Below are positions 4,541 through 35,351 of a stretch of DNA of 64,000 bases, in pieces. A model generated the notes under the pieces. It saw only the letters and a list, made by a program, of their open reading frames with translations. It had not been told where the DNA came from and searched no databases. Source of the DNA: an uncultured Bacillota bacterium (GTDB taxonomy: Bacteria > Bacillota > DTU025 > MWDF01); NCBI GenBank assembly GCA_963823655.1, contig CAWGMK010000010.1:128001-192000 (forward strand), in the 5' to 3' direction. Positions within the stretch are counted from its first letter, which is position 1, and the number at the start of each line of letters is the position of its first letter. Position numbers and translations under genes: made by a program.

Positions 4541-4560
4541 TCTTTATTGCTTTGAAAATT

Positions 4561-4598: not shown

Positions 4599-4630
4599 TG
4601 GCCGATTTGGCCTGGAGCAGCCTGGAAAGC

Positions 4631-6834: not shown

Positions 6835-7010
6835 TTTTGGGGCTTAAATCACGAAATATGCGAGATGCTGTACAATTAAAGCGAAAATCTTTCGATATTC
6901 ATTTTTTACCGATATGATTCTTGCAGGATAATCAAGATTTTCGACGTAGTTTTATTAGTGAAGCAAACCACCGTCCTTTGAAGGGTGTTGATATTTTGGA
7001 CTCCGAGAAG

Positions 7011-7502
7011 ATGAAAGCCGTACATACCGTCGGAAACCGTGTCCTGTTGAACGAGTTCCTCACTGACGTTTTCCACCATATCCTCAAGTTCGAGGAATAT
7101 GCGTTGAGCAGGCAGGGAGTCGGCGACTTGTCGATACAGGAGATGCACCTGATTGAAAAGCTCGGTCCGGACAAGGAGCTGAGGATGAGCCAGATAGCCA
7201 ATGTGCTTGGCGTCACGCTCGGCACTATGACAGTCGCCGCGGACAGGCTCGATAAAAAGGGCTATGTCGTAAGGCAGAGGCTGGATGACGACCGCAGGGT
7301 AGTCAAGCTCAGACTCACCGATAAGGGCAAAGAGGCTTTTCACTTCCATGAGGAGTTCCACCTGAAGATGGCCGATATGGTGCTGCAGGGGCTTTCCCCT
7401 CTGGAAGAGGAGACGCTCACCCAGGCGCTGTCCAACTTAAGGGATTTCTTCATGGGGCTTGACTACAGGAAGCTGAAGAAAAAGGGAAAGAAGCCGGAAT
7501 AG
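7011..7502 (+). CDS. MarR family transcriptional regulator
   Basis: MSQIANVLGVTLGTMT...DRLDKKGYVVR...DDRRVVKLRLTDKG winged helix; start codon uncertain. Confidence 0.9.
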   Translation: MKAVHTVGNRVLLNEFLTDVFHHILKFEEYALSRQGVGDLSIQEMHLIEKLGPDKELRMSQIANVLGVTLGTMTVAADRLDKKGYVVRQRLDDDRRVVKLRLTDKGKEAFHFHEEFHLKMADMVLQGLSPLEEETLTQALSNLRDFFMGLDYRKLKKKGKKPE

Positions 7503-10321: not shown

Positions 10322-10792
10322 ATGGTAAAGACAGTTGTATGCTACTCGCGCTCGGGGAAAACACTTAGAGCAGCGGAGGAACTGGCAAAAGGGCTTGGCG
10401 CAAGGTTAATCGAGATCAAGGAGGCGAACCCGAAGAAGGGCTTCTTCGGCTTCATGGAATGCGGCATGTACGCGACCTTCAGATGGCCGTCCAAAATCCT
10501 GCCTCTGGACCTGCCCGGCGAAAAGCCTTCTCTTACCGTAATATGCGGCCCGATATGGGCAGGTAAGATGTCCGCCCCCGTAAGGGCATTTCTTCTAAAA
10601 AACAAGGATAAGATCGATGATGTAGCCTACATCCTTACGCGCGGCGACCAGAAGAACGATTATTTGGGCGCGATGGACGAGATGGACTCCATATTGGGCA
10701 AGAGGAGGAAGGGCGGCTTGAGCCTTGCGGCTGATTTGCCCCCGACCGCTGTGGCGTCCAGGGTGAAGTCCTTCTCGGACAGCTTGAGATAG
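10322..10792 (+). CDS. flavodoxin-like protein
   Basis: YSRSGKT and GPIWAG...PVRAFL motifs. Confidence 0.85.
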   Translation: MVKTVVCYSRSGKTLRAAEELAKGLGARLIEIKEANPKKGFFGFMECGMYATFRWPSKILPLDLPGEKPSLTVICGPIWAGKMSAPVRAFLLKNKDKIDDVAYILTRGDQKNDYLGAMDEMDSILGKRRKGGLSLAADLPPTAVASRVKSFSDSLR

Positions 10793-11016
10793 GCTTATCT
10801 AAGCACAGTTGATAAGAGTTGGCCTCAGAAACTGCGCTGTGAAGCATGCCGGGTGTGTATAACGGCTTGCTTTTCGCGCCGCTTTTGGGCGTATCAACGA
10901 AAATTATCCGCTTCGAATATTTCGGCGCCTGTTTATTCGTTAAGTTATATGGCTTCGATTATCAAGAGGAACCTACAATGGTATAATATCTTGGTATGGA
11001 TCTTGGAGGTGCTAGT

Positions 11017-11874
11017 GTGGAAAACGAGGAGAAAGAGCTGAAGCCGGAAGTGCCCGTCGGCACAGAGGCAGAGGCTGTCCCTGAGAAGGTTTTGGATGAG
11101 GCCCATGAGGCAGAAGTCGTTGAGGTAGCAGTGCCGGAGGGCATAGAAGCCGAGGCGGACGAAACGGTCGCTGCCTGCGAGGCTAATCTGCAGGGTTCAT
11201 CCGAAGAGGGCGAGCAGGTCGTAGAACCAGCGGCCGATGTGGTAGAGCCAGTGCCGGCGAAGAAGGGAAAGGCTTTCATGTCCGTTGTCCTGGAGTATCT
11301 CCAATCGATAGTCATGGCGTTTTTGATCGCAATCGTGATAATGGCATTCCTGGGCCGCTCCTATATGGTTGAGGGGGCGTCCATGGAGCAGACTCTCTTC
11401 AACAACGAGAGGGTGCTGGTCGAGAAGGTCAGCTATTACGTAAGCTCACCTAAAAGAGGCGACATCGTCGTACTCATGAATCCCAGGCAGCAGAAGTACG
11501 GCAACTGGTTTTTGGACACATTCGGCTTCGTAAAGGACATATTCGTGGTCGACATGTCCACAAGGCCTTACATAAAAAGGATAATCGGCATCACGGGAGA
11601 TACCGTCGAGGTGAAATCGGGCAAGGCGTACCTGAACGGGGAAATGCTCGAAGAGCCATACGTTAGCGAGGAGATCTGGTGGGACTTCGGCCCCACTACG
11701 GTGCCCGAGGGCTATGTATTCGTAATGGGAGACAACCGCAACCACAGCGACGACAGCAGGGGCTCCGTCGGCTTCCTTGAGACCGGGCGCATCCTTGGCA
11801 AGGCGGTCGTGAGGTTCTGGCCTATCAACAAGATGACGGTTTTCACAAGGCCGGATGTATTGAAGAACAGATAA
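11017..11874 (+). CDS. lepB: signal peptidase I
   Basis: GASMEQT (catalytic Ser), YIKRIIG (Lys) and GDNRNHSDDSR; long acidic N-terminal extension. Confidence 0.95.
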   Translation: MENEEKELKPEVPVGTEAEAVPEKVLDEAHEAEVVEVAVPEGIEAEADETVAACEANLQGSSEEGEQVVEPAADVVEPVPAKKGKAFMSVVLEYLQSIVMAFLIAIVIMAFLGRSYMVEGASMEQTLFNNERVLVEKVSYYVSSPKRGDIVVLMNPRQQKYGNWFLDTFGFVKDIFVVDMSTRPYIKRIIGITGDTVEVKSGKAYLNGEMLEEPYVSEEIWWDFGPTTVPEGYVFVMGDNRNHSDDSRGSVGFLETGRILGKAVVRFWPINKMTVFTRPDVLKNR

Positions 11875-11891
11875 AGGCCCTTTTCAAATCC

Positions 11892-11922
11892 ACCGGCCCG
11901 ATTTATCTCGGGCCGGTTTTTT
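11892..11922 (+). terminator. intrinsic terminator
   Basis: ACCGGCCCGA...TCGGGCCGGT followed by a T-run. Confidence 0.8.
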
Positions 11923-11973
11923 CTTAGCTAGCATTACCGCATGTTAGAATACTGCTTGGAACGGGGTGTTTAC

Positions 11974-12720
11974 ATGGACTGTGCACTTATCGAGGCTCAG
12001 ATAGTCGAATGGCTAGGATCCAAGGCGGCGGAAGCCGGCAGCAAGGGCTTCGTCTTCGGCCTTTCCGGTGGAATTGATTCCGCGCTCGTCGCAGCCCTTG
12101 CCGCGAAGGCGATGAAGGGCAGCTGCCTCGGGCTAATTATGCCCTGCGATTCGCATCCTTTAGATGCAGAACATGCCGTGCTCGTTGCTGAGACATTCGG
12201 CATAAGCACCAAAATCGTAGACCTATCAAGCGCGCATAAAAGCCTTATGTCGGAGTTCAGAAGAGGCGCCGAAAAGGAGCCGTCCAGGCTTGCCGCGGCA
12301 AACCTGAAGCCCAGGCTGAGGATGGCCAGCCTCTACTTCTACGCCAATGAGCTCAACTATATGGTCCTTGGCACCGGCAACAGGAGCGAGTGGTATGTGG
12401 GCTACAGCACCAAGTACGGGGACGGCGGCGTAGATGTGCAGCCGATCATAGGCCTTCTCAAAACACAGGTGGCCGAACTTTCCAGGCACCTGGGAGTGCC
12501 GGAGGAGATAGTCACCAAGACACCCACGGCAGGGCTCTGGCAGGGCCAGACCGACGAGGGGGAGATGGGCTTCACATATGCCCAGCTGGACAGATACATC
12601 GCGACAGGTGTTGCCGACGATGAGGTTAAGGCGAAGATCGACAGGATGCACAGGGGTTCAAGGCACAAGTTCGCCCTGGCTCCGTCCCCGATAGAGCCCG
12701 AAAAGGGCATAATGCTTTAA
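11974..12720 (+). CDS. nadE: NH3-dependent NAD+ synthetase
   Basis: GLSGGIDS, NLKPRLRM, GYSTKYGDG and PTAGLWQGQTDE motifs. Confidence 0.96.
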   Translation: MDCALIEAQIVEWLGSKAAEAGSKGFVFGLSGGIDSALVAALAAKAMKGSCLGLIMPCDSHPLDAEHAVLVAETFGISTKIVDLSSAHKSLMSEFRRGAEKEPSRLAAANLKPRLRMASLYFYANELNYMVLGTGNRSEWYVGYSTKYGDGGVDVQPIIGLLKTQVAELSRHLGVPEEIVTKTPTAGLWQGQTDEGEMGFTYAQLDRYIATGVADDEVKAKIDRMHRGSRHKFALAPSPIEPEKGIML

Positions 12721-12730
12721 AGCAGGAGCT

Positions 12731-13303
12731 GTGTGCGAAAGTTGGCTCAAAATCCTGTGGAGGAAATTCATATCCGGCTTTGGCGTCTACGACCTTGTGG
12801 TCATAGGCTTCATAGCAGCGCTGGGGATTGCCGCCAAAAGCGTCATAGGCCCCCTTGCCCATCTTGTGACTGTGCCCATCGGCATACCCGGCGGTGCGCT
12901 TGCAGGTGGCTTCTATATGCTCTGGCTGGTGCTGGCAAGGGCTTTTACGGCAAAGAGAGGGGCGGCCCTTCTGGCGGCGCTCGTACAGGCGATAATAGTG
13001 CTTATAACAGGCTCGTTCGGCTCCCACGGGGCGCTGACCCTGCTGACCTATACTCTGCCCGGCTTGGCGTGCGAGCTAGCCATGCTCCCGTACAGCCCGG
13101 ATGGCGACGGCAAGCTGTTGTGGTGCAGCCTTGGCGGGATCGCGGCGAACCTTACTGGCGTTGTTGCGTCCAACATAGCGTTTTTCAGGCTGCCTGCCCT
13201 GGCTCTGGCGCTCATGGCGGCAACGGCCGCGTTCTCGGGTGCGGCGGGGGGAGCCGCGGCATACGCGGCAACGACAAAGCTCAAGGCCGTTCTGGGTAGA
13301 TGA
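12731..13303 (+). CDS. ECF transporter S (substrate-specific) component
   Basis: About 190 aa, very hydrophobic; GIPGGALAGGFYMLW and GSFGSHG segments; in an operon with two ATPases and EcfT. Confidence 0.8.
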   Translation: MCESWLKILWRKFISGFGVYDLVVIGFIAALGIAAKSVIGPLAHLVTVPIGIPGGALAGGFYMLWLVLARAFTAKRGAALLAALVQAIIVLITGSFGSHGALTLLTYTLPGLACELAMLPYSPDGDGKLLWCSLGGIAANLTGVVASNIAFFRLPALALALMAATAAFSGAAGGAAAYAATTKLKAVLGR

Positions 13304-13319
13304 TGACTGGAGGAATAAG

Positions 13320-13835
13320 ATGAAAAGCAAGGACAGGCTGGCAATAGGCATCATAGTCCTCTTCGGGCTGGTTATGGTGGTACTCGGCGCCGTGAATTCC
13401 TGCGCAACCGACCAGAAGCTTGAAGGGGCGCTGGAAATATATCTTAACGGGGAGAAAGTCGCCACATTGAGCGCGGCTGACCTGTCAGCCCTGAAAAGCT
13501 CCACATTCAAGGCCGTTATAAGAAGCTCTAGCGAGGGCACGAGCGAGGCCGAGTTCACCGGCGTGCTCGTCTACGATATCGCGGCAAAGGCGGTTCCGAG
13601 CATCGCGGACGGCTTCAAGGCGATAATCGTAAAGGCGGAGGACGGCTACCAGACGGTGTTGAGCAAGGATGAGGCGCTGCTTAAGGACAATGCTTACATC
13701 TGCTTTCTCATGAACGGGGCCCCTATAAAAGGCAAGCTGCAGAAGGGCCACGGACCTTTGCGCCTGATCATCCGCAATGACGAGTTTGGCCAGCGCTGGG
13801 TGAAGTACGTAAACAGGATCGAGATAAGAAAGTGA
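13320..13835 (+). CDS. membrane-anchored molybdopterin-binding (sulfite-oxidase-like) domain protein
   Basis: N-terminal TM helix; FTGV.V, AEDGYQT, MNGAP and GPLRLII...RWVKYVNRIEI motifs. Confidence 0.75.
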   Translation: MKSKDRLAIGIIVLFGLVMVVLGAVNSCATDQKLEGALEIYLNGEKVATLSAADLSALKSSTFKAVIRSSSEGTSEAEFTGVLVYDIAAKAVPSIADGFKAIIVKAEDGYQTVLSKDEALLKDNAYICFLMNGAPIKGKLQKGHGPLRLIIRNDEFGQRWVKYVNRIEIRK

Positions 13836-14518
13836 GCGTGCTGGCGCTGCACGGCATCAGCTTTCGCTACAAGTCGGCTAAAAAGCCGATATTGTGCGGG
13901 CTTGATCTCGTTTTGGAGCGCGGCGAGTGCGTAATGGTCTCAGGGCCGTCAGGGGGCGGAAAAAGCACGCTATGCCTTATAGCTTCCACCATAATCCCCA
14001 CAAGGATTGCAGGCGAGCTTGCCGGAAGCGCCGAGCTGATGGGCGAAAGCACAGCCAAGCTGGGCCCGGCGGGGGCCTCGCATCACCTGGCGTTCGTAAT
14101 GCAAGAACCTGAATACTCTATGATAATGCCCACTGTGGAAGAGGAGCTGGCCTTCGGCCTGGAGAGCAGGAGCTGGCCTGCCGGCGAGATCTCAGCTCGC
14201 GTTGAGGAGCTCATCGAGGCCTTCGGGCTTGGTTCGCTTCTGGGAAGGAATCCCGTGAAGCTCTCCGGCGGGGAGAAGCAGGCAGTGGCAATCGCCGCGG
14301 CAATCGCCCCGAAGCCCACCCTTCTTATCCTAGATGAGGCCTTCTCCGGCCTGGACAACGAGAGATACGCCCTTGCCCAGGTACAGATTAAGAAGCTGAA
14401 GGATGAAGGCTCGGCAATGCTTCTGGTTGAACACACCGCCAATGGCAGAAGCGTTCATTCATGGGTGGACAGGCAGCTGCTGCTTGAAGGCGGATTGCTG
14501 GCGGAGGTGGCGCGGTGA
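13832..14518 (+). CDS. ecfA: ECF transporter ATP-binding protein
   Basis: GPSGGGKST, QEPE, LSGGEKQ and LILDE motifs. Confidence 0.9.
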   Translation: MSVLALHGISFRYKSAKKPILCGLDLVLERGECVMVSGPSGGGKSTLCLIASTIIPTRIAGELAGSAELMGESTAKLGPAGASHHLAFVMQEPEYSMIMPTVEEELAFGLESRSWPAGEISARVEELIEAFGLGSLLGRNPVKLSGGEKQAVAIAAAIAPKPTLLILDEAFSGLDNERYALAQVQIKKLKDEGSAMLLVEHTANGRSVHSWVDRQLLLEGGLLAEVAR

Positions 14519-15193
14519 AGGAAGTAAGATTCGATGCCGTGCATTACTCCTATCCTCCCGACAGGAACGGGGAGCCTGGCAGGAAGGTGTTCTCAGGGCT
14601 CACCATTGAGCTTGAGCCGGGAAATGTGTACGTAATGACCGGGCCAAATGGCAGCGGGAAGAGCACCTTGGCAAGGCTTATGGCAGGCATAATTCATCCG
14701 GATGAGGGCAAGGTTTCAATCGGCGGCAAGGATGTTTTGGCATTGAGCCTTCCTGAGGTAGGCAGGTCGGTAGGGCTCGTGATGCAGGATCCCTCAAGGC
14801 AGCTTATCATGCAGAAGCCCGCGGATGAGATAGCATTCGGGCTAGTCCACAACGGAACTGGGAGGGAAGAGGCCCTTAAGATCGCCGAGAAGGTGCTTGA
14901 AGAGTACTGCTTGACGCGGGGCGTCAGGGACGTTTACCCAGAGGCTGTCTAAGGGCGAGCAGGTTAGGCTGGCGATGGCATCTGTCGCGGCGCTCAATCC
15001 CGACTGGCTGGTACTGGATGAGTCTTTCGCAAGCCTAGATTCCGGCACAAGCAGCATAATCATGGCCAAGCTCAGGCAGATGGTGCAAAAAGGAGCCGGC
15101 GCGCTGGTCATATCCCACTCCGGGCTTATCTTAGAAGAGCTTAAGGGCATAAGGATAGATATGCAGAAGGGGGGCGCGGCGCTTGTGGGCTGA
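14515..15193 (+). CDS. ecfA: ECF transporter ATP-binding protein (frameshift near 14940)
   Basis: GPNGSGKST and QDPSRQ in the first ORF; LSKGEQ and LVLDE in another frame. Confidence 0.85.
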
Positions 15194-15914
15194 TATCGAC
15201 CCCAGGCCGAAGCTTTTTGCGGCCCTGTGCCTGTCCTCCATGGCCCTGATGGCAAGGCAGGCGGGCTCCTCGATCCTGCTTCTGCTGCTTAGCATCGCTG
15301 CATTCATGGCCTTCGGCGTGGATCTGCGAAGGCCGGCAAAGGCTCTGGTGCGCCTCGCCCCTGTGTTGATGACAGTTGCCCTTATCCAGATACTGCTCAT
15401 CAAAAGCGGGGATGTGCTGGTGAGCGCAGGCGTCATCCGGATCGTCACGACAGGCGGGCTGAGAGCTGCGCTGTTCATGGCCGTAAGAGTGGGAGTCATC
15501 GCAAGTTGCGGCTTTATCATAGGAAGCATAGGCTTTTCGGATTTTCTTCTGGCGATGAAGGCGATAAGGGTGCCTTACGAGCTGTCATTCATTTCAGCGA
15601 TGGGTGCGAAGCTTCTTCCACTTCTGGCTGAGCAGATGAAGGATTCTCTGGTATCGGCACAGCTCAGAGGCGCAAATTTATCTAAGATGGGGCTTATGGC
15701 CAGGTTCAGGCTTTACACCGATGTGCTGATGCCCGCCACAGTGACTTCGATAATGAGGGCTGAGCAGATATCCTGGTCGCTGGAGCTGAAAGGTTTCGAT
15801 CCGGGCAAGCCCCGCACATACTGGCGCAGGCTTGACATGTCTACGGGGGATTGGTTGGTCTTTCCCGCCTGCCTGATTGCCATTGGCGCGTTTCTGATTT
15901 TGAATTATGCCTGA
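15183..15914 (+). CDS. ecfT: ECF transporter transmembrane component T
   Basis: IDPRPKL start; AQLRG and LELKGF conserved positions. Confidence 0.9.
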   Translation: MWADIDPRPKLFAALCLSSMALMARQAGSSILLLLLSIAAFMAFGVDLRRPAKALVRLAPVLMTVALIQILLIKSGDVLVSAGVIRIVTTGGLRAALFMAVRVGVIASCGFIIGSIGFSDFLLAMKAIRVPYELSFISAMGAKLLPLLAEQMKDSLVSAQLRGANLSKMGLMARFRLYTDVLMPATVTSIMRAEQISWSLELKGFDPGKPRTYWRRLDMSTGDWLVFPACLIAIGAFLILNYA

Positions 15915-15926
15915 TAGGAGGCCATC

Positions 15927-16439
15927 ATGAAAGTTTTTGCCGTATCCGGTCTTCATGGCACAGGGAAGACCACCGTTGTGGAAAACTTGGTCAGGGAGCT
16001 CTCTTCAAGAGGGCTAAGAGTCGGCACGGTCAAGGATATACATTATGAGGGCTTCTCTATGGACAAGGAGGGCACCAATACCTGGAGGCACATGCAAGCG
16101 GGAGCCTGCATGGTGGCGGCCCGCGGGCTCAGGGAGACCGATTTTCTTATACCCGCCAGATTGGCCATGGCCGACATCGTCCGGAAGTTCGACACCGACG
16201 TTGTCATAATCGAGGGGGGACATGAGGAGGATTACCCGAGGATTACATGTGCCACGATGCCTGAGGACGCCGATTTGAGAATAGATGCACGTACCTTCGC
16301 AATATCGGGTTGCCTTGCCGAATGCATGGCGGAATATCGAGGTTTCAGGGTGTTCAATTGCCTGATCGAGGCAGGGCTACTTGCCGACCTGGCGCTTGCC
16401 TCATCGCTTGAGCTTGGCACTAAGGGAAGCGAAGTATGA
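15927..16439 (+). CDS. mobB: molybdopterin-guanine dinucleotide biosynthesis protein B
   Basis: GLHGTGKTT, VGTVKDIH, DKEGTNTWRHMQAGA and IIEG motifs. Confidence 0.88.
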   Translation: MKVFAVSGLHGTGKTTVVENLVRELSSRGLRVGTVKDIHYEGFSMDKEGTNTWRHMQAGACMVAARGLRETDFLIPARLAMADIVRKFDTDVVIIEGGHEEDYPRITCATMPEDADLRIDARTFAISGCLAECMAEYRGFRVFNCLIEAGLLADLALASSLELGTKGSEV

Positions 16440-17270
16440 GGGCCGACGCGATTGATTTGAAGATTGCGCCTCTGGCCGGGGCTGTCGTTAGCGTGATGGC
16501 CGAAGCGGATGGCAGGATATCCAGCGAGGAGGCGCTTTCGGTACTTCCCGGCTTCGAAGGGGCTTTCAGGCTCAATTCGAGGAAAGGCACCTGCTTTGAG
16601 ATTAGGTTTGCCGGTTCGCCGTCAATCTTCGCCAAGTTCCTGGAAAATGAGCAGAAGGCGGAGAATGAGAGAGTTTGCGCAAGGCTCCTTAACGATTGCG
16701 GCATCAGCTGCCCGGCGGTGCTGGCAAGATCCGGCAAAGCGATCGCAAGGCGCTTCATAGAGGGGAATACGGCATCGGACGAGCTGGATACGATACAGTC
16801 CTGGGGCGATTGCCCGGCTGCGCTAAAACTGTGCGGCAAGATAGGCGGCATGTTGCGCCAGGTGCATGGGATAAGCACTGAATGAAGCAGCGTCGTTGGC
16901 ACTTAACGATTTGAATTTGAAGAACTTCATTGTATCCCGAAGAGGAGAGCTGAGCCTCATAGACCTCGAGGATGCGGGCGTTGGGCAGGCAGCGGTGGAC
17001 CTGGGGGCGCTTATAGTGCACATCCTGACCCACAGGCCGAGCTTCTCGGAGCTCTCCTGGCAGATGGCCGAGGCCGCCTTCGATGGTTATTGCGGCCCTA
17101 CAGGCCCCGATTTCGGCCTCGAGGAGTGGAAGGAAGGCCTGGATACTGCAATCAGGGATGCATCCATTAGGAGGAAAGACCCGACTCTTGTAGAACAAAT
17201 GCCGGGGATACTTGCGCGCGCATCAGAATGGAGACTGCCAAAAAGCGAAGGGAGCCGGTTGACGCGATGA
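16436..17270 (+). CDS. aminoglycoside-phosphotransferase/kinase-like protein (frameshift near 16880)
   Basis: AKF...E, LRQVHG, NDLNLKNF and LIDLED kinase motifs split across two frames. Confidence 0.7.
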
Positions 17271-17812
17271 AGGCCAAGGAGCTTACGCTCGGTGCTCTTT
17301 TCACGGCCCTGATGATAGCGGGGGCTTACATCGCCTTGCCGACCCCTCTCCTGCCTGTGACATTTCAGCCGTTTTTCAGCGTGCTTGCAGGCTCGATATT
17401 AGGGCCCAAGCTAGGTAGCATGTCTGTTGCGGCATATATTGCGATCGGCCTTGCCGGAGTACCCGTATTCGCGGGCTTCACAGGAGGCATCGGCAAAGTG
17501 CTTTCGCCTTCATTCGGTTTCATACTGGGCTTTTTCGGAGCGGCCTTAATCACGGGCGCAATGCTCAATAAAAAGGAGGCCACTTTTAGAAGTGTGGCGC
17601 TGGCTTCCACCGCCGGCATCCTCGCAATATACCTGATAGGTGTGCCATACATGTATGGCGTTTTCACGCTTGTGTCCGGCAAGGATGTGACTTTTACCGC
17701 GGTCGCGATTTCTATGGTGCCGTTCTTCATTAAGGATCTGGTACTTTCATTGGCTGCAGCTGGCCTTGCGGTTAGGCTCATACCTGTCGCCAGGATGGCA
17801 GTCAGGTCCTGA
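17267..17812 (+). CDS. bioY: biotin ECF S component
   Basis: PVTFQ, GLAGVPVFAG and SPSFGFILGF motifs. Confidence 0.92.
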   Translation: MKAKELTLGALFTALMIAGAYIALPTPLLPVTFQPFFSVLAGSILGPKLGSMSVAAYIAIGLAGVPVFAGFTGGIGKVLSPSFGFILGFFGAALITGAMLNKKEATFRSVALASTAGILAIYLIGVPYMYGVFTLVSGKDVTFTAVAISMVPFFIKDLVLSLAAAGLAVRLIPVARMAVRS

Positions 17813-19309: not shown

Positions 19310-20582
19310 CTAAAGTCCTAATGAGGCCCTCATCTTGCCGAAAAGAGCCGTGTTATCGTAGTAGCCTTGGAAAAGACCTTCGCCTGGCCCCCGGGCGCTT
19401 ACGACTACGGGCACTGCCGTGTGCGAGCTGGTCCCCCAGGAGATGTTGGCCCTTGCCGATACCATCCTGCCGATCTCCCTTGCCGGATCGGAGGACGCGG
19501 CGATTAGCTCCATGCCGTCGCCCTCAGTATGGCTCAGATGAGCCTGCGAAGACAGAATTGAATATAGGCTGCTCCAGTCCGAGGCGGCATCGGCTGCCAT
19601 TTGGGATGCGCTGGAGCGCACGCTCTTCAGATATGGAATTCCGATCTTGTAGCCGGCCGCGGCCCCCAAGGAGAGCCCGCCGGTCTCGTGGTCGGCTGCG
19701 ACTATCACCAAAGTGTCGCCACGGGTACGCGCATAGTCAAGGCAAACGGCAACAGCTTCGTCGGTTGACAGCATCTCCGCTAATGCGCCTGCCGCGTCGT
19801 TATCGTGCGACATCCGGTCTACCGCACCCGATTCCACAAGCAACATGAACGGCTTATCGGATTCTTCCAGCAGGGCAAGCCCCTCCTTGAGCATGTCAGT
19901 GAGCCTGGCCTCATCCTTCTGCCTGTCAATTTCCGGGGTGAGCTCCTCGTCCGCGAGAAGGCAGATGGCGGGTAAGCTGGCGGAAGCCCTTAAAGAGGGG
20001 AGGCTGTAGTAAAATGCGGGTCCCTTCCTTTGAGCAGGCTCGCCTTTATCCGCATTGTCCGATGCCGGCTTTATATAGGACCTGCCGCCGCCGATCATTA
20101 AGTCTATGCCCGATGAGAGCAGCTGGGTCGATATGTTCTTCTTGGCAGTGCGGTCGAACTCGCTTGCGTACATGGCGGCGCACGTTGCGTCGTACAATGC
20201 CGATGTCGTAATTATGCCGGTATTCATGCCTTTGGCCTCTGCCAGCTCCATGATGCTGGTAAGCTCGTCCAGCTCCTTGTCGTAACCCAAGACGCCGTTG
20301 TAGGTCTTCTTTCCGCAGAACATGGCGGTGGCCGAGGCGGCAGAGTCGGTGATGTCCAAATCGACGCTAGACGTCAGCATAAGCCCAATAAAAGGCATGT
20401 TGTTCATGACAAGCCCTTTGTCCAAAGCAAGCTCCCCGAGCTGCCTGTGGGAAGGTCCCATGCCGTCCACTATGAAGATGATGAGATTTCCTGGCGGGGG
20501 CGGCCGAGTAAACTGCACCAGAAAGGATCATAAGGCCCGCCAGCAACGTCAGGAATATGCGGAAAAGGGTACTTTTGCGCAT
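19310..20582 (-). CDS. phoA: alkaline phosphatase (signal peptide in a different frame; frameshift near 20490)
   Basis: IVDGMG, ITDSAASATA, VESGAVDRMSHDND, ADHETGG and HTAVPV motifs. Confidence 0.9.
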
Positions 20583-22922: not shown

Positions 22923-22994
22923 ATTTTCTCCCCCTTTAGGTCCGATTCAATTGCAATTACATTATCACACAATGTATGATTCCGAGTAAGAAAA

Positions 22995-23097
22995 CCGCGC
23001 TCCGAGCCGGAGGGCCTAAAGCGAGAATGGCCAAGGATCTCCGGCCGATAGGGCCAGGGCGGAAACACCCTGACCTCCCTTTTGGAAAGGATTGCGG
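22995..23097 (+). ncRNA. Moco/tungsten-cofactor riboswitch (MOCO_RNA_motif-like)
   Basis: CTCCGAG...GGCCTAAA...GGAAAC...CCTCCC..TGGAAAGGA signature; closing stem CCGCGCTCC/GGATTGCGG; upstream of molybdopterin-binding-domain genes. Confidence 0.82.
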
Positions 23098-23162
23098 GGG
23101 GCTTGCATTTATTTGCCGTGCCTTCCGATTGGGGGCACGGCATTTGTTTTGGAGGTGCCAGG

Positions 23163-24131
23163 ATGAAACCGGCGATTAGAATCAGGGCTATTGTGCTGGT
23201 CTGCCTTTCTTTAGCGCTTATGGCATTAGCCTTATCGGCCCAGGCCGCAGAGAAGGTGCAGATTAAGCTTACCGACAGGTTGGGCACATCCCAGATCGTA
23301 AATGTTTCGGCCCTGCCGCAGCTGACATACAAGGCGGCATACAAGCGTTCATCAGGGACGATAGTCGGCCCGTTCACTTACACAGGACCCTCCATGATGT
23401 CCATACTGGCACTTATGGGCGGCGTCCATAAAGGCGATGCCGTGCAGCTCATTTCCGACGATGGCTACAGGATGAGCCTTACTTTCGAGCAGTTGTCGGG
23501 GGAAGTCACTGTATACGACGAGAAGGGTGAAGCCCTTGACGAATTCAAGCGCCCGGTGATGATGCTTGCCCTTTCATCAGATAATCCCGCATTTGCTGCC
23601 GGCAACCCCAGAGCCATATACGCTGGTCCTGAGACGCCGCTGACCGATGGACACACGTGGGTCAAGAGCATAGTAGAAATCAAGGTCATCCCGCTGGTCA
23701 AAGAGTGGGTGCTGGAGCTGAAAGGCGCAGTACAGGCCAGGATGGACAGGTCCACATTCGAAAGCCTTGCCACTTGCCCCGTTTCCCCGCACCCGGGATC
23801 GGAGTTCGGAACAGAAGCATCCGCATATGCGGGCACACCGCTTTGGACTCTTGTGTCCGTGGTGGACAATGTCGAGGCCGAGAACGCGCATTACACATTC
23901 GACAGAAAGCTCGCCAAAGAGGGCTATATCGTCAGGGTCATATCGAAAGACGGCACCTACCTGGACATCCGCTCCCAGGATATGGCGGATGAGCCCGGTA
24001 TATTCATGGCTTTCACCAAAGGTGGAGCCCTGCTCTCTGAAGAAGAGGGGCCCCTTATGCTAACAGGGCCCAAGGTCGGCAAACCCCTCAAGAACATAGT
24101 GGCGATAGAGCTTATAGGCTTGAATAAATAG
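23163..24131 (+). CDS. secreted protein with two molybdopterin-binding-like domains
   Basis: Signal peptide (AQA); repeated YTG/YAG...SDDGY/SKDGT...WVKSIVEI/LKNIVAIEL units; GGAGG RBS. Confidence 0.7.
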   Translation: MKPAIRIRAIVLVCLSLALMALALSAQAAEKVQIKLTDRLGTSQIVNVSALPQLTYKAAYKRSSGTIVGPFTYTGPSMMSILALMGGVHKGDAVQLISDDGYRMSLTFEQLSGEVTVYDEKGEALDEFKRPVMMLALSSDNPAFAAGNPRAIYAGPETPLTDGHTWVKSIVEIKVIPLVKEWVLELKGAVQARMDRSTFESLATCPVSPHPGSEFGTEASAYAGTPLWTLVSVVDNVEAENAHYTFDRKLAKEGYIVRVISKDGTYLDIRSQDMADEPGIFMAFTKGGALLSEEEGPLMLTGPKVGKPLKNIVAIELIGLNK

Positions 24132-24142
24132 GAGGCATTGAC

Positions 24143-24661
24143 ATGAAAAGAAAGTTCCTGGTATCAGTCATTATCCTTACGGTTATGTCCGTATCCCTGG
24201 CCGTTATGGCGGCGGGTCCGGCAGTTAAGCTCGTAAAAGGCGACGCGGCTCCGGTAGTAGCGGAGCTCGAGAAGCTCGAAAAGGTTGAGGGTCTGGCCCT
24301 GTACAAGAACTCCAAGGGGGTAATCTCCGGTCCCTTCAAAATCAAGGGAGTGAAGCTGTCAGAGGCGCTCAAGCTTGTGGGCGGAATGACGGCTGACGAG
24401 AAGCTGGTCATCACGTCCTCCGACGGCTATTTGACCGAGCTCACCTTCGCCCAGGCCAATGGCGAATTGGCGGTCACCAAGGCAGATGGATCGCCCGTCG
24501 AAGAGAAGCTCTCTGTAGTGCCCGTGCTGATCACCTGGTCGGAGCCCGCCATGGAGAAGGACCTGCCAAGGCTCGCCTTCATAACACAGGCAGGTCACAT
24601 CACCGAGAGCAAGTACTGGGCGCGCAATGTAGTAGAGATAAAAGTGGTTCCGGCGAAATAG
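24143..24661 (+). CDS. secreted single-domain paralog of the preceding gene
   Basis: Signal peptide; GPFKIKGVKL...GGM...SSDGY..ELTFAQ...WARNVVEIKVVP parallels domain 1 of 23163..24131. Confidence 0.7.
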   Translation: MKRKFLVSVIILTVMSVSLAVMAAGPAVKLVKGDAAPVVAELEKLEKVEGLALYKNSKGVISGPFKIKGVKLSEALKLVGGMTADEKLVITSSDGYLTELTFAQANGELAVTKADGSPVEEKLSVVPVLITWSEPAMEKDLPRLAFITQAGHITESKYWARNVVEIKVVPAK

Positions 24662-24684
24662 GGAAGATTTAGCTGCCAGTTTTG

Positions 24685-24718
24685 GGGCGCCTTTCGGTCG
24701 TACGAAGGGCGCCCTTTT
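24685..24718 (+). terminator. intrinsic terminator
   Basis: GGGCGCCTTTCG...CGAAGGGCGCCC followed by TTTT. Confidence 0.8.
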
Positions 24719-24825: not shown

Positions 24826-26589
24826 ATGGCAGATTCCCTCCGAATTTCGATAATTCAGATGGGGGCATATGACATACTAAGTCCGCACCATGCGGACAAT
24901 GAGATGTTCTACATGCTTGAGATGGAGAAGGACTTCAAACCGGACATCATCCTTCTTCCCGAGTGCGCCTGGCCGGGCTATTTCCTCTCCGGCTGGGACT
25001 ACTCCATGCAGGAGAAATCGGATGATATTAGAGCCAGGCTCGCCCAGACGGCAAGGAGGCTCGACTGCTTCATAGTTGCCGGACTGCCGGAGCCGGATAA
25101 GAGCGGGCCCACAGCCCAGATGCTCCCCTTCAACGAGGGCTGGATGCAGCCAGAGCCATCGCCCCTGTTCAATTCCGCGATCGCGTGGAACAAGCAGGGC
25201 AAGGTGGTCGCTTCGGGCCATAAGATCAATTTGTGGCACTTCGATTCACGTTGGTTCATGAAGGGTGAATCGCCGGCCTCCTTCCGCACGAAATGGGGAA
25301 AAGTAGGCCTTATAGTCTGCGCGGACGCGAGGGTCCCCGGCATAGTGGAGACGCTTACAGAGGACGGCTGCCGCCTGGTATTGAACTGCACCAACTGGGT
25401 AACGTCCGGACCAGACAGGTCGAGGCTCACAAACCCCCAGGCGGACTACCTGATAAGAGTCAGGGCGGTCGAGAACAACGTATGGATCGCTTCGTCCAAC
25501 AAGGTGGGCCTGGAAGACGGCCTCATAGCCTTCTGCGGGGGCTCGCAGCTCGTATCCCCTGAAGGGGTTACGGTAAGCAGGGCTTCGTCCGACAGGATAG
25601 AGACCATAAGGGCGGAGATACCTCTCGATGAGCAGGGCAGGATAGCTCTGCCGGAGCCCAAGATCGAAAGGATCAGCAACGCGGCATACTACGACGCAGC
25701 CGTTACAGGCCTTTCCGTACAGCCTGCCGCTGAGCCGACGGCCGAAACTCCCCTGGCGTCCGGAGATAGTGAAGACGGAGCGGCCAGCGGCGATAAAGGC
25801 CTGAAGATTCAAGGTTATTGCCCGAGGCCCTCATATCCCTACATGGCGGTGGTCCAGCAGTCTCCGGAATCGGCAGGGCAGCCCGGCACAGGGCTGATTG
25901 CCAAGGCAGCGGTGAAAAGGCTGGCTGCTAAGATAGATGCGCTCGATGCGGACATTGTGGTGTTCTCCGGGACTTTCGCGGCCCTTCCGGGCCCGGATCC
26001 CCAGGCCGGGGCGCTATTAAATGAGCCCGGCATAAGGAAACGCCTGCTGGTAATACCGTACGGAAGGTGCGCCAAGTGCGGAAACCCTATTGGAGGGGCG
26101 GACGTCTGCTTTGATGGCAAGTCCCTTCAGCAATACGGCGCTTTGAGCGTCAGGGAGGCCACCAGAGGCTGCCCCAGGTGCGGCAACGGGGATTCCGTGG
26201 CGCTGGCACCTGTAGTGCAGACTCCTTTCGGCCCGCTGGGGCTCGTCCTCGGCAGGGAGGGGCACGAGCACAGGTTGATAGCGAACCTCGCCGGCATGGG
26301 AGTGGGCATGTTCGCATGGATAACATCGGGCCTGGTACATGAGCATGAGATTGTGGCTCGGGCAAGGGCGATGGAAAGCAGGGTCTGGGTGGCCACTGCC
26401 AACCCGGCGCGCATAGTAGGGAAAGCGGACGGCCCGGAGGCACATTCTGGGCTCAGCCTCATTGCAGAGCCCGATGGAAGGGTAGCTTCATGCGCATTCC
26501 CGGACGAAGAGCAGATCATATGCTCCTACTGCGATTTGTGCCTGACTGAAAGGGCCGAGGCCGTTCCAGGCACGCTTGCAACAAGATAG
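24826..26589 (+). CDS. carbon-nitrogen hydrolase (nitrilase superfamily), two domains
   Basis: LPEC, HKINLW and IVCAD give the E-K-C triad; RVRAVEN; degenerate second domain with RARAMESR. Confidence 0.88.
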   Translation: MADSLRISIIQMGAYDILSPHHADNEMFYMLEMEKDFKPDIILLPECAWPGYFLSGWDYSMQEKSDDIRARLAQTARRLDCFIVAGLPEPDKSGPTAQMLPFNEGWMQPEPSPLFNSAIAWNKQGKVVASGHKINLWHFDSRWFMKGESPASFRTKWGKVGLIVCADARVPGIVETLTEDGCRLVLNCTNWVTSGPDRSRLTNPQADYLIRVRAVENNVWIASSNKVGLEDGLIAFCGGSQLVSPEGVTVSRASSDRIETIRAEIPLDEQGRIALPEPKIERISNAAYYDAAVTGLSVQPAAEPTAETPLASGDSEDGAASGDKGLKIQGYCPRPSYPYMAVVQQSPESAGQPGTGLIAKAAVKRLAAKIDALDADIVVFSGTFAALPGPDPQAGALLNEPGIRKRLLVIPYGRCAKCGNPIGGADVCFDGKSLQQYGALSVREATRGCPRCGNGDSVALAPVVQTPFGPLGLVLGREGHEHRLIANLAGMGVGMFAWITSGLVHEHEIVARARAMESRVWVATANPARIVGKADGPEAHSGLSLIAEPDGRVASCAFPDEEQIICSYCDLCLTERAEAVPGTLATR

Positions 26590-26612
26590 TCCCGAAAAAC
26601 GGAGGTCCGGCG

Positions 26613-27539
26613 ATGAGAAGGTCTTCGATAATTGCACTTATTGTCCTTTTGGCGATGATGGCAGTTCAGTCCACAGGATGCACAGCGGGGTATAAGCCGA
26701 AGGTTGTAGTGCTGAACGGCGTCACGGGCCTGGGGCTGGCGAAGCTGTTGGGGAGCCCGGATTACGAGGTCGAGGTTGGCAAATCGGCGGACGTGGCGGT
26801 TGCAAGGCTCACTTCCAAGACCGCTGACGCTGCGGCCCTTCCCGTATCAACTGCCGCGCTGCTTCGAAGCAAAGGCACTGCCATAAGATTGGCCGCTATC
26901 ACCAACTATGGCTCCCTATACATCCTTACTTCCGGCAAAAACGTGGATATACCCTCCATAGCGGCATCCTTCCTCGGGGTTCCCGGCAGGGGCACGATGC
27001 CCGACGTAACGATGAGCATGCTGCTTTCGGAGTACAAAGTACAAGGCACCGGAGTGCAGTACTATTCCTCGCCAGCCGAGCTTGCCAACCTTCTTGCAGC
27101 CGGCAGGGTGGAGGCGGCGCTTCTTCCCGAGCCGTGGGTCAGCCAGGTACTTTCGGCAAACAGCTCGCTTAAAATTGCCGTAGATATGCAGAAGGCTTTC
27201 AAGGACGCCTATGGCTTCGACTATCCGCTAAGCTGCGTCGTTGTGAGCGAAAGCTTCGCAACCGACAGGCCGGCAGAGCTCAAGAAACTGCTTGAGGACA
27301 TCAAGGCGAGCGTCGCTTGGGTCGTGTCGAACCCGGCGAAGGCCGCACTGGTCGCCGAGGAGAGGCTCTCGATGGAGAAAGGCGCGACCGAAGCTGCGAT
27401 CCCGCGCTGCAATTTCGAATACCTGGATGGTCTTAAAGCCAGGGAAGCCGCCCTTGCCTTCTACAGTAAGGTGCTTTCCGTATCGCCTGCCATGATCGGA
27501 GGGAAGCTCCCCGATGAGGCGTTCTACATCTCGAAATAG
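26613..27539 (+). CDS. ABC transporter substrate-binding lipoprotein (NitT/TauT/NMT1-like)
   Basis: Lipobox STGC; AALLPEPW motif; C-terminal GGKLPDEAFY. Confidence 0.88.
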   Translation: MRRSSIIALIVLLAMMAVQSTGCTAGYKPKVVVLNGVTGLGLAKLLGSPDYEVEVGKSADVAVARLTSKTADAAALPVSTAALLRSKGTAIRLAAITNYGSLYILTSGKNVDIPSIAASFLGVPGRGTMPDVTMSMLLSEYKVQGTGVQYYSSPAELANLLAAGRVEAALLPEPWVSQVLSANSSLKIAVDMQKAFKDAYGFDYPLSCVVVSESFATDRPAELKKLLEDIKASVAWVVSNPAKAALVAEERLSMEKGATEAAIPRCNFEYLDGLKAREAALAFYSKVLSVSPAMIGGKLPDEAFYISK

Positions 27540-28287
27540 CTTTTATACGGCGGCGGGGCTAGCCCTGTTGATTGCCATATGGTGGGCAGGATCGCTTATC
27601 ATCGGCAGCGTCATCCTGCTGCCCACGCCTGCTGAGGCATGGCTTGCTCTGCTGAGGATTTCTGCAAAGCCGGGCTTCCTTTCGGATCTGGGGGCAACGG
27701 GCCTTCGCGTCCTGATCGCATTCGCCCTATCATTCGCCCTGGGGCTGCTTGCAGGCGTTGCGTCCGGCATGTCCGGTGCGGCAAAAGGGATGCTTTCGCC
27801 GTTATTGGCTGCCCTTCGGACGATCCCCTTCATATCACTCTCTGTGCTTTCGATAATCTGGTTCCCGTCAGGCACCGTGCCCATCTTCGTGGCGTTTTTA
27901 ATGGCATTTCCGATCGTCGCATCTGATGTATCGGAGGGGCTGGGCTCAGTCGATGCGGGGCTTATCGAGATGTCCCGAGTTTTCAAGGTGAGCCGCACAA
28001 AGATGCTAAGGAGACTTTACCTTCCGTCCATAGCCCCGTATCTTGTGTCCGCAAGCGCGCAGTCGCTGGGCATGTCATGGAAGATCGTAGTCTCCGCCGA
28101 AGTGCTCTCAATACCTGCAAAAGGAATCGGAGCGCGGATGGACGCGGCGCGAGCCTTCCTTGAGACTCCAGAGCTTTTCGCCTGGACTTTGCTGCTCGTA
28201 ATCCTGGGCTTTCTGGCCGACCTCGCCCTGGGGGCAATGATGGCAAGGGCTTTCAGGAGGAAGGAGGGAAAGCTTTGGCAGGAGTGA
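27514..28287 (+). CDS. ABC transporter permease (NitT/TauT family)
   Basis: LPTP, LIEMSRVF, YLPSIAPY and WKIVVSAE motifs. Confidence 0.9.
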   Translation: MRRSTSRNSFYTAAGLALLIAIWWAGSLIIGSVILLPTPAEAWLALLRISAKPGFLSDLGATGLRVLIAFALSFALGLLAGVASGMSGAAKGMLSPLLAALRTIPFISLSVLSIIWFPSGTVPIFVAFLMAFPIVASDVSEGLGSVDAGLIEMSRVFKVSRTKMLRRLYLPSIAPYLVSASAQSLGMSWKIVVSAEVLSIPAKGIGARMDAARAFLETPELFAWTLLLVILGFLADLALGAMMARAFRRKEGKLWQE

Positions 28288-29006
28288 TCATAAAGGGCCT
28301 ACGGAAGGCCTTTGACGGGGTGGACGTCTTCTCGGGCGTGGGGCTTGAGCTTACAGAGGGGAAAATAACAGCGATACTCGGGCCTTCCGGAAGGGGCAAG
28401 ACCACGCTGCTGAGGATAATCTGCGGCCTTGATAAGCAGACGGACGGGCAAGTGCAGATGCCTGAAGGCGCCACATGTTCCGTTGCCTTCCAGGAGCCGA
28501 GGCTAATCCCTTGGCTTACGATCGGAGAGAACATGTCCTACTGCCTTGGGGATGCAGGCATGGCCGCGGCAAGCTCCTGGCTTGCAGAGCTGGGGCTTGG
28601 GGATTTCGCCGACAGATTCCCGTGCAGCATGTCCGGCGGTGAAAGGCAGAGGGCGAACCTCGCAAGGGCGCTTGCGGCAAAATCATCACTGCTGCTTCTC
28701 GATGAACCTTTTAACTCAATCGGGCTTGGCATGAAAGCAGAGCTGCTGCCAAGGCTGAGGGCGAAGTTCGCAAACGAGGGCAGGACGGTCGCAATGGTCA
28801 CTCACAGCCCGGTAGATGTGGCGCTGATGGCCGACAGGTTCTATCTAATGGACGGGGACGGAATGGGCGCGCAGGGCCCGTTCGGGCTTAATATCGAAGG
28901 TGTGGAAAGAGACCTCGCAGATGAGGCCATGGGACAAGAGGTCCACAGGTTGATGCTGCTTATGGCGTCTTTGGGGACGGGGGTGCAAAAGGCGGATGGG
29001 CGATAA
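28275..29006 (+). CDS. ABC transporter ATP-binding protein
   Basis: GPSGRGKTT, FQEPRLIPW, MSGGERQR and LLDEPF motifs. Confidence 0.92.
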   Translation: MAGVIIKGLRKAFDGVDVFSGVGLELTEGKITAILGPSGRGKTTLLRIICGLDKQTDGQVQMPEGATCSVAFQEPRLIPWLTIGENMSYCLGDAGMAAASSWLAELGLGDFADRFPCSMSGGERQRANLARALAAKSSLLLLDEPFNSIGLGMKAELLPRLRAKFANEGRTVAMVTHSPVDVALMADRFYLMDGDGMGAQGPFGLNIEGVERDLADEAMGQEVHRLMLLMASLGTGVQKADGR

Positions 29007-29716
29007 TCCGGAGAGGTTCGCAAGGGAAGAGCTCCTGGTAGGAAAAGAGGGCATCGAGAAGCTGGCCTCAAGCCACGTCGCGGTCTTCGGCATCGGTGGC
29101 GTTGGTTCGTTCTGCGCTGAGGCCCTGGTAAGAGCAGGTATAGGAGAGATTACATTCGTAGATTCGGATACTGTGCAGGAGAGCAATTCCAACAGGCAGC
29201 TTGTCGCGCTTGTCAGCACTCTGGGCCGCGCGAAAGTCGATGTGATGGCAGAAAGGGCGCTGGACATCAACCCTGAACCTGAAAGTCCATGCGATAAAGG
29301 CGTGGTTCGGGCCCGATAACGCGGAGCAGATGCTCTCATCCGGGTTCGATTACGTGGCGGATGCGATAGACAGCGTGGAATCCAAGCTGGAACTCATCCG
29401 GAAGTGCCATGAAAAGGGGATTATGATAGCCTCCTCGATGGGCGCCGGCAACAAGCTCGACGCGACCGGCTTCAAAATCGCGGACATCTCCTCCACACAT
29501 ACTTGCCCGCTTGCAAAGGCCATAAGGACGAGGCTCAAGCGCGAGGGGATAACAAACGGGATAACAGTCGTATTCTCGGAGACTGAGCCTGTAAGGAGGG
29601 CCCCAGGGCCTCCTGGCAGCATATCTTTCGTGCCGCCGGTCGCAGGCCTGCTTTTGGCCCAGGTCATAATTAGGGGGCTGCTGGAGAGGGAGGCCGTGCC
29701 TGAGGGTTCAATTTAA
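28996..29716 (+). CDS. tcdA: tRNA threonylcarbamoyladenosine dehydratase (ThiF family; frameshifted near 29280-29320)
   Basis: GIGGVGS and ESNSNRQ in the first ORF; DAIDS, SSMGAGNK, TCPLAK and GSISFVP in the second. Confidence 0.88.
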
Positions 29717-35109: not shown

Positions 35110-35186
35110 GGAGGCGTGGTGTAGTGGTCCAACATGCCTGCCTGTCACGCAGGAGACCGCGGGTTCGACTCCCGTCGCTTCCGCCA
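35110..35186 (+). tRNA. tRNA-Asp(GTC)
   Basis: Acceptor GGAGGCG/CGCTTCC; anticodon arm CCTGC-CTGTCAC-GCAGG; TTCGA; CCA end. Confidence 0.97.
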
Positions 35187-35276: not shown

Positions 35277-35351
35277 GCGGATGTAGCCCAGTGGTAGGGC
35301 AATGGCTTCCCAAGCCATGTGTCGCGGGTTCGAATCCCGTCATCCGCTCCA
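35277..35351 (+). tRNA. tRNA-Gly(CCC)
   Basis: Acceptor GCGGATG/CATCCGC; anticodon arm ATGGC-TTCCCAA-GCCAT; TTCGAA; CCA end. Confidence 0.97.

Follow-up and report, generated by a model that had tools for sequence, protein, structure and literature searches.

A stretch of 64,000 nucleotides from an uncultured Bacillota bacterium (contig CAWGMK010000010.1, positions 128,001 to 192,000; hereafter the window) contains a two-gene unit headed by a riboswitch of the molybdenum cofactor (Moco) class with a terminator, and the unit encodes two proteins, P0002 and P0001, which carry export signals and have the fold of the molybdenum (Mo) domain of sulfite oxidase (SUOX). In related bacterial and archaeal genomes, homologs of P0002 lie in a conserved string of genes that also encodes an importer of the energy-coupling factor (ECF) type. 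We suggest that the two secreted proteins may be capture components that are made when the molybdenum or tungsten (Mo/W) cofactor is low and that serve an ECF importer whose cargo is a related pterin; we give this about even chances. An earlier note on this DNA, made from the letters alone, had described a Moco-motif RNA in front of two secreted proteins with molybdopterin-binding domains and had proposed that they scavenge cofactor or metal outside the cell.

The RNA was identified with the Rfam model RF01055, which matched over its full length (model positions 1-135); it scored 64.9 bits (E 2.5e-13), where the gathering score is 36, and this match is the sole riboswitch found by the Rfam scan of the window. 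The conserved core of the model and helices P1, P2, P4 and P5, with the GAAA tetraloop, are present in the alignment of the window aptamer, and the P3 hairpin of the model is deleted. The Moco-motif RNA of the earlier note is thereby confirmed and, of the Moco and tungsten types that the note had left to be told apart, its lack of P3 places it in the P3-less class of Regulski 2008 (PMC2408646). Passages of that paper associate P3-less Moco RNAs with tungsten-cofactor genes and metabolism, and the ligand class of the aptamer is thought to be the tungsten cofactor. A promoter scan of the region gave three sites where 1.2 were expected, and the site just in front of the aptamer is supported by its consensus match alone. 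In energy folding, the full leader formed the aptamer together with the terminator; when the leader was cut before the 3' arm of the terminator, the 3' strand of P1 paired instead with the terminator 5' arm. This competition between the P1 3' strand and the terminator 5' arm is the layout of an OFF switch, and the riboswitch is predicted to act by terminating transcription, which fits the earlier proposal that the proteins are made when cofactor is scarce. The unit is also closed by a terminator-like hairpin, as had been noticed before: none of 200 shuffled sequences folded as well, and the stem is followed by UUUUC. It was not listed by the consensus terminator scan because its U-run is short (4 U). 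The genes flanking the unit are functionally unrelated to it, with an M28 peptidase upstream on the opposite strand and a two-domain CN-hydrolase downstream.

Both proteins begin with a basic and a hydrophobic stretch followed by small-x-small residues (..LSAQA/AEK in P0002 and ..AVMA/AGP in P0001, read by eye), in agreement with the signal peptides of the earlier note, and their AlphaFold models have a lone helix at residues 3-24 and 3-19, respectively. No twin-arginine (RR) motif was seen by eye in MKPAIRIRAIV.. or MKRKFLV.., and many P0002 homologs have lipoprotein-type signals ending in Cys (by eye). These features suggest that P0002 and P0001 are exported via Sec or lipoprotein signals. 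The predicted models (pLDDT 86 for P0002 and 89 for P0001) were compared with solved structures by Foldseek, and the top matches of both were SorA, PruR, YedY and sulfite oxidase, with a probability of 1.00. For P0002 the matches were SorA (3.8e-5), PruR (4e-5 to 1e-4) and YedY (3e-4); for P0001, the matches listed to rank 45 were SUOX-family Mo domains or PruR, the best being 7kom (1.1e-5). The fold of MsrP and sulfite oxidase, on which the earlier note had staked its reading, is thus the one that the models match, together with PruR.

The link of the two proteins to the family PF00174 comes from homologs, profiles and fold, not from a Pfam match of their own. P0002 homologs at 31-42% identity carry PF00174 (that of locus L017 scores 30.1 bits), and in a language-model atlas P0002 lies adjacent to PF00174 clusters. 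A third protein of the window, P0003, matches the family with 44.1 bits against a cut-off of 24. BLASTP of P0001 and P0002 against P0003 gave chance-level matches only, and profiles were needed to link them. These were made from alignments of the C-terminal domain type of P0002 (C-type; A2, 49 sequences), the N-terminal type (N-type; A3, 49 sequences) and the P0003 type (A4, 33 sequences). The N-type profile was aligned with A4 by hhalign at 98.4% (E 8e-15) and the C-type profile at 97.9% (E 5.6e-13), and P0001 is 34% identical to the N-domain of P0002 (E 2e-20). Searched against the Protein Data Bank (PDB), the A4 profile matched SoxC (1.5e-7) and SorA (7e-7); a sequence search with the whole-protein profile gave weak matches (E 0.1-0.2). 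By profile and predicted fold, then, the three domains of P0002 and P0001 are SUOX-fold relatives of the P0003 domain, and the three copies of that domain which the earlier note had counted are upheld.

The same note had called the domains Cys-less. This stands for P0001 and for the N-domain of P0002, neither of which contains Cys, and does not stand for the C-domain of P0002, in which Cys205 lies directly after a helix in the motif DRSTFESLATCP and Cys is kept in 48/49 homologs; His is frequent in this domain type as well (32/49). Cys205 was aligned with the Mo-ligand Cys of SUOX enzymes by no sequence or profile tool, and the hhalign alignments of the C-type and N-type profiles with Escherichia coli MsrP did not reach the Cys region. 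A Leu of the A4 profile falls opposite the MsrP Cys in the hhalign alignment (E 4.7e-4, probability 33%), and transfer via the N-type/A4 profile alignment puts a Tyr or Phe of the N-type domains opposite the Mo-ligand Cys position. The motif DGY...W, from which the repeated domain had been recognized, is invariant, with Tyr and Trp each in 49/49 N-type and 33/33 P0003-type domains. In the secreted pterin binder PruR, a Tyr and a Trp sandwich the pterin and an Asn precedes this Tyr by two residues (PMC11194511), and the site of the Mo-ligand Cys is taken by Trp (PMC11194511, PMC13259868), as described in passages of these papers. HMMER aligned the D-G-Y of the family with the N-D-Y of PruR at a chance level of similarity (E 0.1), and the equivalence of the Trp residues is one of position near the C-terminus only, not an alignment.

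Related loci were collected by searching with 16 P0002 homologs in one genome per species of bacteria and archaea. This gave 84 places, of which 80 were kept (30 bacterial and 50 archaeal); as they come from a single species-representative genome set and from patterns of two motifs, the counts of loci are lower bounds. The sequence covered is the 64 kb of this genome and ~13 kb or less per related locus. The bacterial loci belong to Bacillota, many from anaerobic digesters and syntrophic lineages, and to one Chloroflexota, and the archaeal loci to Methanosarcinales/ANME, Thermoplasmata, Thorarchaeota, Bathyarchaeia and Methanomethylicus. One homolog, P0023, is carried by the cultivable Gelria sp. 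Kuro-4. Loci L001-L006, the six closest, have the layout of the window, that is riboswitch, P0002-type gene, P0001-type gene and CN-hydrolase. In more distant Bacillota, the string behind the riboswitch consists of a P0002 homolog, a fusion of a Metallophos domain with a SUOX-like domain, a fusion of an S component of the YkoE family (PF09819) with a SUOX-like domain, EcfAA' and EcfT, and the archaeal loci have the same gene string without the Moco RNA. The P0002 homolog and the Metallophos protein occur in either order; the latter is secreted and has its SUOX-like domain at the C-terminus. Its Metallophos part is nearest to GpdQ (2zo9, 1.3e-14) and matches cyclic-nucleotide phosphodiesterase models below their cut-offs. 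The S component has an A4-type domain fused at its C-terminus (for example in L017 and L021), the fused S components match the YkoE structure 5edl at 7.7e-11, EcfAA' is a single fused protein and the ECF set is intact in these relatives.

An S fusion was found on the same strand as the P0002 homolog in 45/80 loci (14/30 bacterial and 31/50 archaeal), the two being parts of the same gene string in the loci that were mapped; several of the loci without one lie on contigs that break off inside the first genes or shortly behind them. This shared string supports, at the level of gene order, the partnership that the earlier note had suspected between the secreted proteins and an ECF operon about 7 kb upstream. 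Directly behind EcfT, in convergent orientation, 28 of the 37 loci with EcfT have a gene for a small kinase (APH/RIO/Bud32-like fold), and it was the only recurrent gene in the flanks of 22 loci; genes of W/Mo enzymes were not recurrent there. In two loci a HAD-family hydrolase, not a kinase, follows EcfT on the same strand (L024 10393..11079 and L026 10415..11104).

A P3-less riboswitch lies upstream of the genes on the same strand in 26/30 bacterial loci (17/18 and 9/12 in two batches), the four without it being L025, L029, L032 and L063, and in 0/50 archaeal loci; a model built from 26 aptamers found no further Moco RNA copies in the loci. For comparison, the aptamers of the window and of 25 loci were aligned (A6, 26 sequences), leaving out the copy of L010, which is cut at its 5' end. 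There was no insertion at the P3 position in 26/26 aptamers, and the deletion of P3 was read directly in six alignments including that of the window. Among the 26 leaders 34 columns are invariant, 94.7% of cells in the helices are paired compared with 75% after shuffling and 29-56% in slid controls, and 14/24 pairs change on both sides. In a crude scan, 15/26 loci had a hairpin with a U-run after the aptamer, one of them weak; the leaders in which no terminator was found may be under translational control, or the terminator may have been missed by the scan. Other RNAs are present near two of these riboswitches: a TwoAYGGAY RNA just 5' of it in L015 (4016..4173, minus strand), and a cyclic di-AMP riboswitch ~5 kb upstream of the Moco RNA in L020 (288..423, plus strand).

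In the window, the ECF genes form an operon of their own upstream of the riboswitch unit (Table 1), in which a dedicated (group I) set of S, A, A' and T components is encoded together. The S component gene and that of P0003 represent the split form of the S-SUOX fusion of the relatives, and the ECF operon with MobB and the kinase is the split equivalent of their single-string cluster. MobB adjoins the ECF genes both here and in L006. Open reading frames are split at three places in the window, in EcfA' (14515..15193, where the LSKGEQ signature continues in the second frame), in the kinase and in a ThiF-like gene (28996..29713), either by assembly indels or by gene decay.

Table 1. Features of the riboswitch unit and of the ECF operon in the window (positions of the window).
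Feature	Position	Strand	Basis and remarks
ECF S component, YkoE type	12731..13303	+	PF09819, 1e-10
P0003, membrane-anchored SUOX-like domain (own membrane helix), separate gene	13320..13835	+	PF00174, 2.2e-11
EcfA	13832..14518	+	ABC_tran
EcfA', frame broken	14515..14952 + 14975..15193	+	ABC_tran
EcfT (CbiQ family)	15183..15914	+	PF02361, 2.3e-19
MobB (molybdopterin-guanine dinucleotide synthesis protein B)	15927..16439	+	PF03205 8.6e-23; TIGR00176 80.9 bits against cut-off 76.2
Small APH/RIO/Bud32-like-fold kinase, frame broken	16436..17270 (16436..16885 + 16896..17270)	+	Intact in L001, L003, L006
Sigma-70-like promoter (TTGCAA, 18 nt, TATGAT)	22951..22980	+	9/12 consensus matches; just 5' of aptamer
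Moco RNA motif aptamer, P3-less (putative tungsten-cofactor class)	22988..23108	+	Rfam RF01055
Expression platform	23093..23150	+	P1 3' strand 23095..23102 can pair with terminator 5' arm 23119..23127
Terminator hairpin, then T-tract to 23150	23114..23142	+	12 bp (8 GC), then TTTGTTTT; between aptamer and start codon
Shine-Dalgarno GGAGG	23151..23155	+	7 nt 5' of ATG 23163; read from sequence
Gene 1, P0002, 322 aa	23163..24131	+	Signal peptide residues 1-28, N-type and C-type SUOX-like domains
P0002 N-type SUOX-like domain, no Cys	23247..23702	+	Homologs, profiles, AlphaFold
P0002 C-type SUOX-like domain, Cys205	23703..24128	+	Homologs, profiles, AlphaFold
Gene 2, P0001, 172 aa	24143..24661	+	Signal peptide and a single N-type SUOX-like domain without Cys
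Terminator-like hairpin at the end of the two-gene unit	24684..24715	+	-26.7 kcal/mol, z -5.6

From these loci we infer a ligand class for the riboswitch, a direction of switching, a cargo and an order of steps. P0002 and P0001 would act outside the membrane as components that capture the cargo or hand it over, and the importer served would be the ECF transporter whose YkoE-type S component has its own external SUOX-like domain. The cargo would be a pterin related to the Mo/W cofactor: either the cofactor as such, or molybdopterin, or else a precursor or breakdown product. In the relatives, the secreted fusion of a class-III-type phosphodiesterase with a SUOX-like domain may trim a phosphate or nucleotide part outside the cell, and the small cytoplasmic kinase may add the phosphate again after import. 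When cofactor is plentiful, the aptamer would hold P1, the terminator would form and the genes would be off. Riboswitches for thiamine pyrophosphate (TPP), flavin mononucleotide, tetrahydrofolate, preQ1 and cobalamin control ECF importers of their own cofactor or precursor. The salvage of NAD by NadN, PnuC and NadR, with a hydrolase outside, an importer and a kinase inside, offers a further analogy, and an analogy only, for a hydrolase, an importer and a kinase that are encoded together. A complex prediction for mature P0002 with the P0003 domain scored 0.00 and is informative neither way.

Several observations weigh against such an importer of a cofactor-related pterin. Neither P0001 nor P0002 has a match above threshold in Pfam or NCBIfam. 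The nearest solved relative of the S component, YkoE, binds thiamine or hydroxymethylpyrimidine (HMP), not a pterin. The C-type domain is without the presumed stacking Trp, and P0001 and its six orthologs have ESK in front of the invariant Trp, at the place of the DGH that is kept in 48/49 N-type domains; with pockets as divergent as these, the three domains need not share one ligand. The direction of the switch comes from energy folding only, and a terminator-like hairpin follows 15/26 aptamers, not all. Upstream of the window ECF operon no RNA family was found (Rfam, E up to 1, 10500..13500), and the frames of EcfA' and of the kinase are broken there, so that the importer of the window may be defective, or the breaks may be assembly indels. 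No Moco biosynthesis genes besides MobB were found near the cluster, in the flanks of 22 loci or in the window. Free Moco is labile and, according to passages of a 2021 review, is held not to be taken up except in Caenorhabditis elegans (PMC9026282).

The S component raises the question of another phosphorylated cargo, such as a pterin of the folate or methanopterin type, a thiamine-like compound or something else, with only an indirect link to the Mo/W cofactor. APH-fold kinases include vitamin kinases, YkoE, the relative of the S component, binds thiamine or HMP, and no riboswitch names the ligand in the archaeal loci (0/50). The cluster resembles YkoEDC and the riboswitch-controlled ECF vitamin importers in its PF09819 S component, its dedicated EcfA, A' and T and, in the relatives, the cofactor riboswitch that heads the operon. 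It differs from them in that the S component carries or precedes an extracytoplasmic SUOX-like domain, that secreted binders, a phosphodiesterase and a kinase belong to the cluster, and that the riboswitch is of the Moco class, not the TPP class. The leaders of all 26 RNA-bearing bacterial loci carry this class and no other, and both the window and L006 have MobB next to the ECF genes; we consider a different cargo unlikely. The metal itself could also be the cargo, the SUOX-like domains binding tungstate or molybdate (or thio forms, in sulfidic habitats) and feeding the ECF importer. The RNA class and its logic, uptake genes off with cofactor, would then be those of tupABC and modABC under Moco riboswitches; Moco RNAs are often found in front of genes for molybdate or tungstate transport, in Pelobacter one of the P3-less kind (passages of PMC2408646). 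By record titles the carriers of the cluster are anaerobes and archaea of tungsten-using kinds, the Cys (48/49) and His (32/49) of the C-type domain could bind a thiophilic metal, and SUOX active sites bind oxyanions (structure titles give sulfate or phosphate as bound). Unlike tupABC and modABC, however, the cluster encodes an ECF importer rather than a binding-protein-dependent ABC transporter, and SUOX-like rather than periplasmic oxyanion-binding folds. Taking up an oxyanion requires neither the phosphodiesterase nor the kinase that are conserved in the cluster, the S component belongs with the vitamin type of YkoE and not with the metal type of CbiM/NikM, and the conserved Tyr and Trp probably correspond to those that stack the pterin ring in PruR. 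Uptake of the oxyanion is thus improbable.

That P0002 might, through its Cys-bearing domain, be an exported enzyme, a Mo/W oxidoreductase at the cell surface akin to MsrP or sulfite dehydrogenase whose apoenzyme synthesis the riboswitch couples to cofactor, is a decidedly poor prospect. It would account for the fold matches with SorA, YedY/MsrP and sulfite oxidase, for PF00174 on P0003 and homologs, and for the conservation of Cys205, and Moco RNAs precede some genes of cofactor-using enzymes (passages of PMC2408646). Yet Cys205 was not aligned to the Mo-ligand Cys by any tool, two of the three domains have no Cys, and no heme, cytochrome, MsrQ-type partner, other redox partner gene or dimerisation domain was found in the two-gene unit, where SorA/SoxC and MsrP/YedY enzymes differ by a Tat signal and by a dimerisation or heme domain or partner subunit. 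With no twin-arginine signal (by eye), the proteins would cross the membrane unfolded and without cofactor; the OFF layout would silence the enzyme when cofactor is present; and the genes to which the unit is tied are those of an ECF importer, a phosphodiesterase and a kinase. The earlier choice of secreted binders rather than enzymes is in line with the Sec or lipoprotein signals, the lack of a redox partner gene and the PruR matches. Secreted binders might also report extracellular pterin to a membrane partner, as PruR does in Agrobacterium, Vibrio and Klebsiella, and feed no transporter. PruR (7kos, 7kom, 7kp2, 7rkb) is a small exported SUOX fold without the Mo-ligand Cys, its pterin-sandwich Tyr aligns with that of the family (N-D-Y/D-G-Y), and it ranks near the top of the Foldseek lists for both models (7kom, 7kp2 and 7kos among the best). 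P0001 fits its build in size, signal and absence of Cys, the features that PruR shares (PMC11194511, PMC13259868), and no PW motif was seen at the Cys site. This motif, a truncated pocket for small pterins, the DcpA sensor and a proteobacterial distribution of the PruR-dcpA operons are PruR's own, as described in passages of PMC11194511. Here, by contrast, there are up to two domains, one with a conserved Cys, and a Moco riboswitch and ECF partners; neither in the window nor in the loci scanned is the unit next to a gene for a DcpA-type membrane sensor or for any other sensor. The cofactor riboswitch and the fusion to an ECF S component point to transport, and signalling of the PruR kind is very improbable.

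Within uptake of a cofactor-related pterin, a further-reaching version is that anaerobic Bacillota and several archaeal lineages have a complete pathway by which the tungsten (or molybdenum) cofactor is salvaged intact, which we regard as possible, though doubtful. SUOX-like proteins at the surface would collect the cofactor from the surroundings or from proteins of other cells, the Cys-bearing domain would hold the metal and the fused phosphodiesterase would strip the nucleotide or phosphate. The ECF importer with its own pterin-binding domain would then carry the cofactor in, and restoring its active form would fall to the dedicated kinase, in this lineage together with MobB.

The remaining neighbours of the genes were recorded as side observations. 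The biotin S component BioY (17228..17812) lies directly after the ECF-MobB-kinase genes in the window and likewise in L001, L003 and L006, and might use the EcfAA'T module as well. An alkaline phosphatase gene (19310..20518, minus strand; PF00245, 1.9e-64) is located between the ECF cluster and the riboswitch unit; it is syntenic in L001, L003, L005 and L006, and its longest open reading frame has no signal peptide; it might stand in for the Metallophos fusion that this lineage lacks. Behind the two-gene unit, both in the window and in L001-L006, comes a 587-aa CN-hydrolase (within 24826..29003), and it is probably a separate unit since it lies behind the closing hairpin. After it come an NMT1-like ABC transporter and the ThiF-like gene in the window, an ABC ATPase match further on in L001-L006, and ThiF-like N-termini in L001-L003, L005 and L006. 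Three tRNA genes were also found in the window (35110..35183, 35277..35348 and 42764..42835; Rfam, 65-73.5 bits).

The protein family is of modest size, with 1582 clusters at E<=0.001, 833 at E<=1e-10 and 294 at E<=1e-30, and its members currently go under the names 'hypothetical' or 'molybdopterin-dependent oxidoreductase'. Among them are giant forms, multi-repeat and S-layer-anchored, library members (P0028-P0094) having up to 3139 aa and 9 matched stretches. In L028 (4804..8175) a 1123-aa protein with SLH and CARDB domains and an N-type/C-type pair lies behind a Moco riboswitch, and L029 has another very large relative (4484..7105). Membrane-anchored single N-type domains of ~195 aa occur in loci without ECF genes (L028 10989..11582, L029 8772..9365, L030 6171..6764, L035 4273..4851 and L037 6768..7346), where they adjoin proteins of ~265-290 aa that match part of the L017 Metallophos fusion.

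Taken together, the earlier inferences of secreted scavengers, of expression at scarcity and of an ECF partnership all fit these results, and comparative genomics largely bears them out. We found no description of this cluster, under either Moco riboswitch with ECF transporter or cofactor uptake and salvage, in a literature search that left subscription journals outside. On Moco uptake, that search gave only the C. elegans work, one review and a passing remark on the type 11 secretion system (in part of PMC12282271). Passages of a 2013 survey of riboswitch regulons list no Moco uptake class (PMC3766115), and according to passages of the 2021 review the cofactor must be made de novo, C. elegans being the sole known exception (PMC9026282). 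The cluster thus looks undescribed, and the results suggest a system for taking up the cofactor or a precursor of it.

The cluster spans syntrophs, relatives of methanogens and ANME, Thermoplasmata and Asgard archaea. To our knowledge, Moco, with its tungsten form, is the one large cofactor class without a known microbial uptake system, and the combination of a riboswitch, external proteins of a pterin-binding fold, an ECF importer, a phosphodiesterase and a kinase makes Moco uptake directly testable. ECF importers as a rule work, as far as we know, without external binding proteins, and an S component with a fused external binding domain departs from this picture. For a family of ~830 clusters (E<=1e-10), the loci provide a function to look for. 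If salvage of the intact cofactor were true, it would be the first uptake pathway for Moco or the tungsten cofactor (Tuco) in prokaryotes, and it would allow cross-feeding of the cofactor and the loss of molybdopterin synthesis in members of a community.

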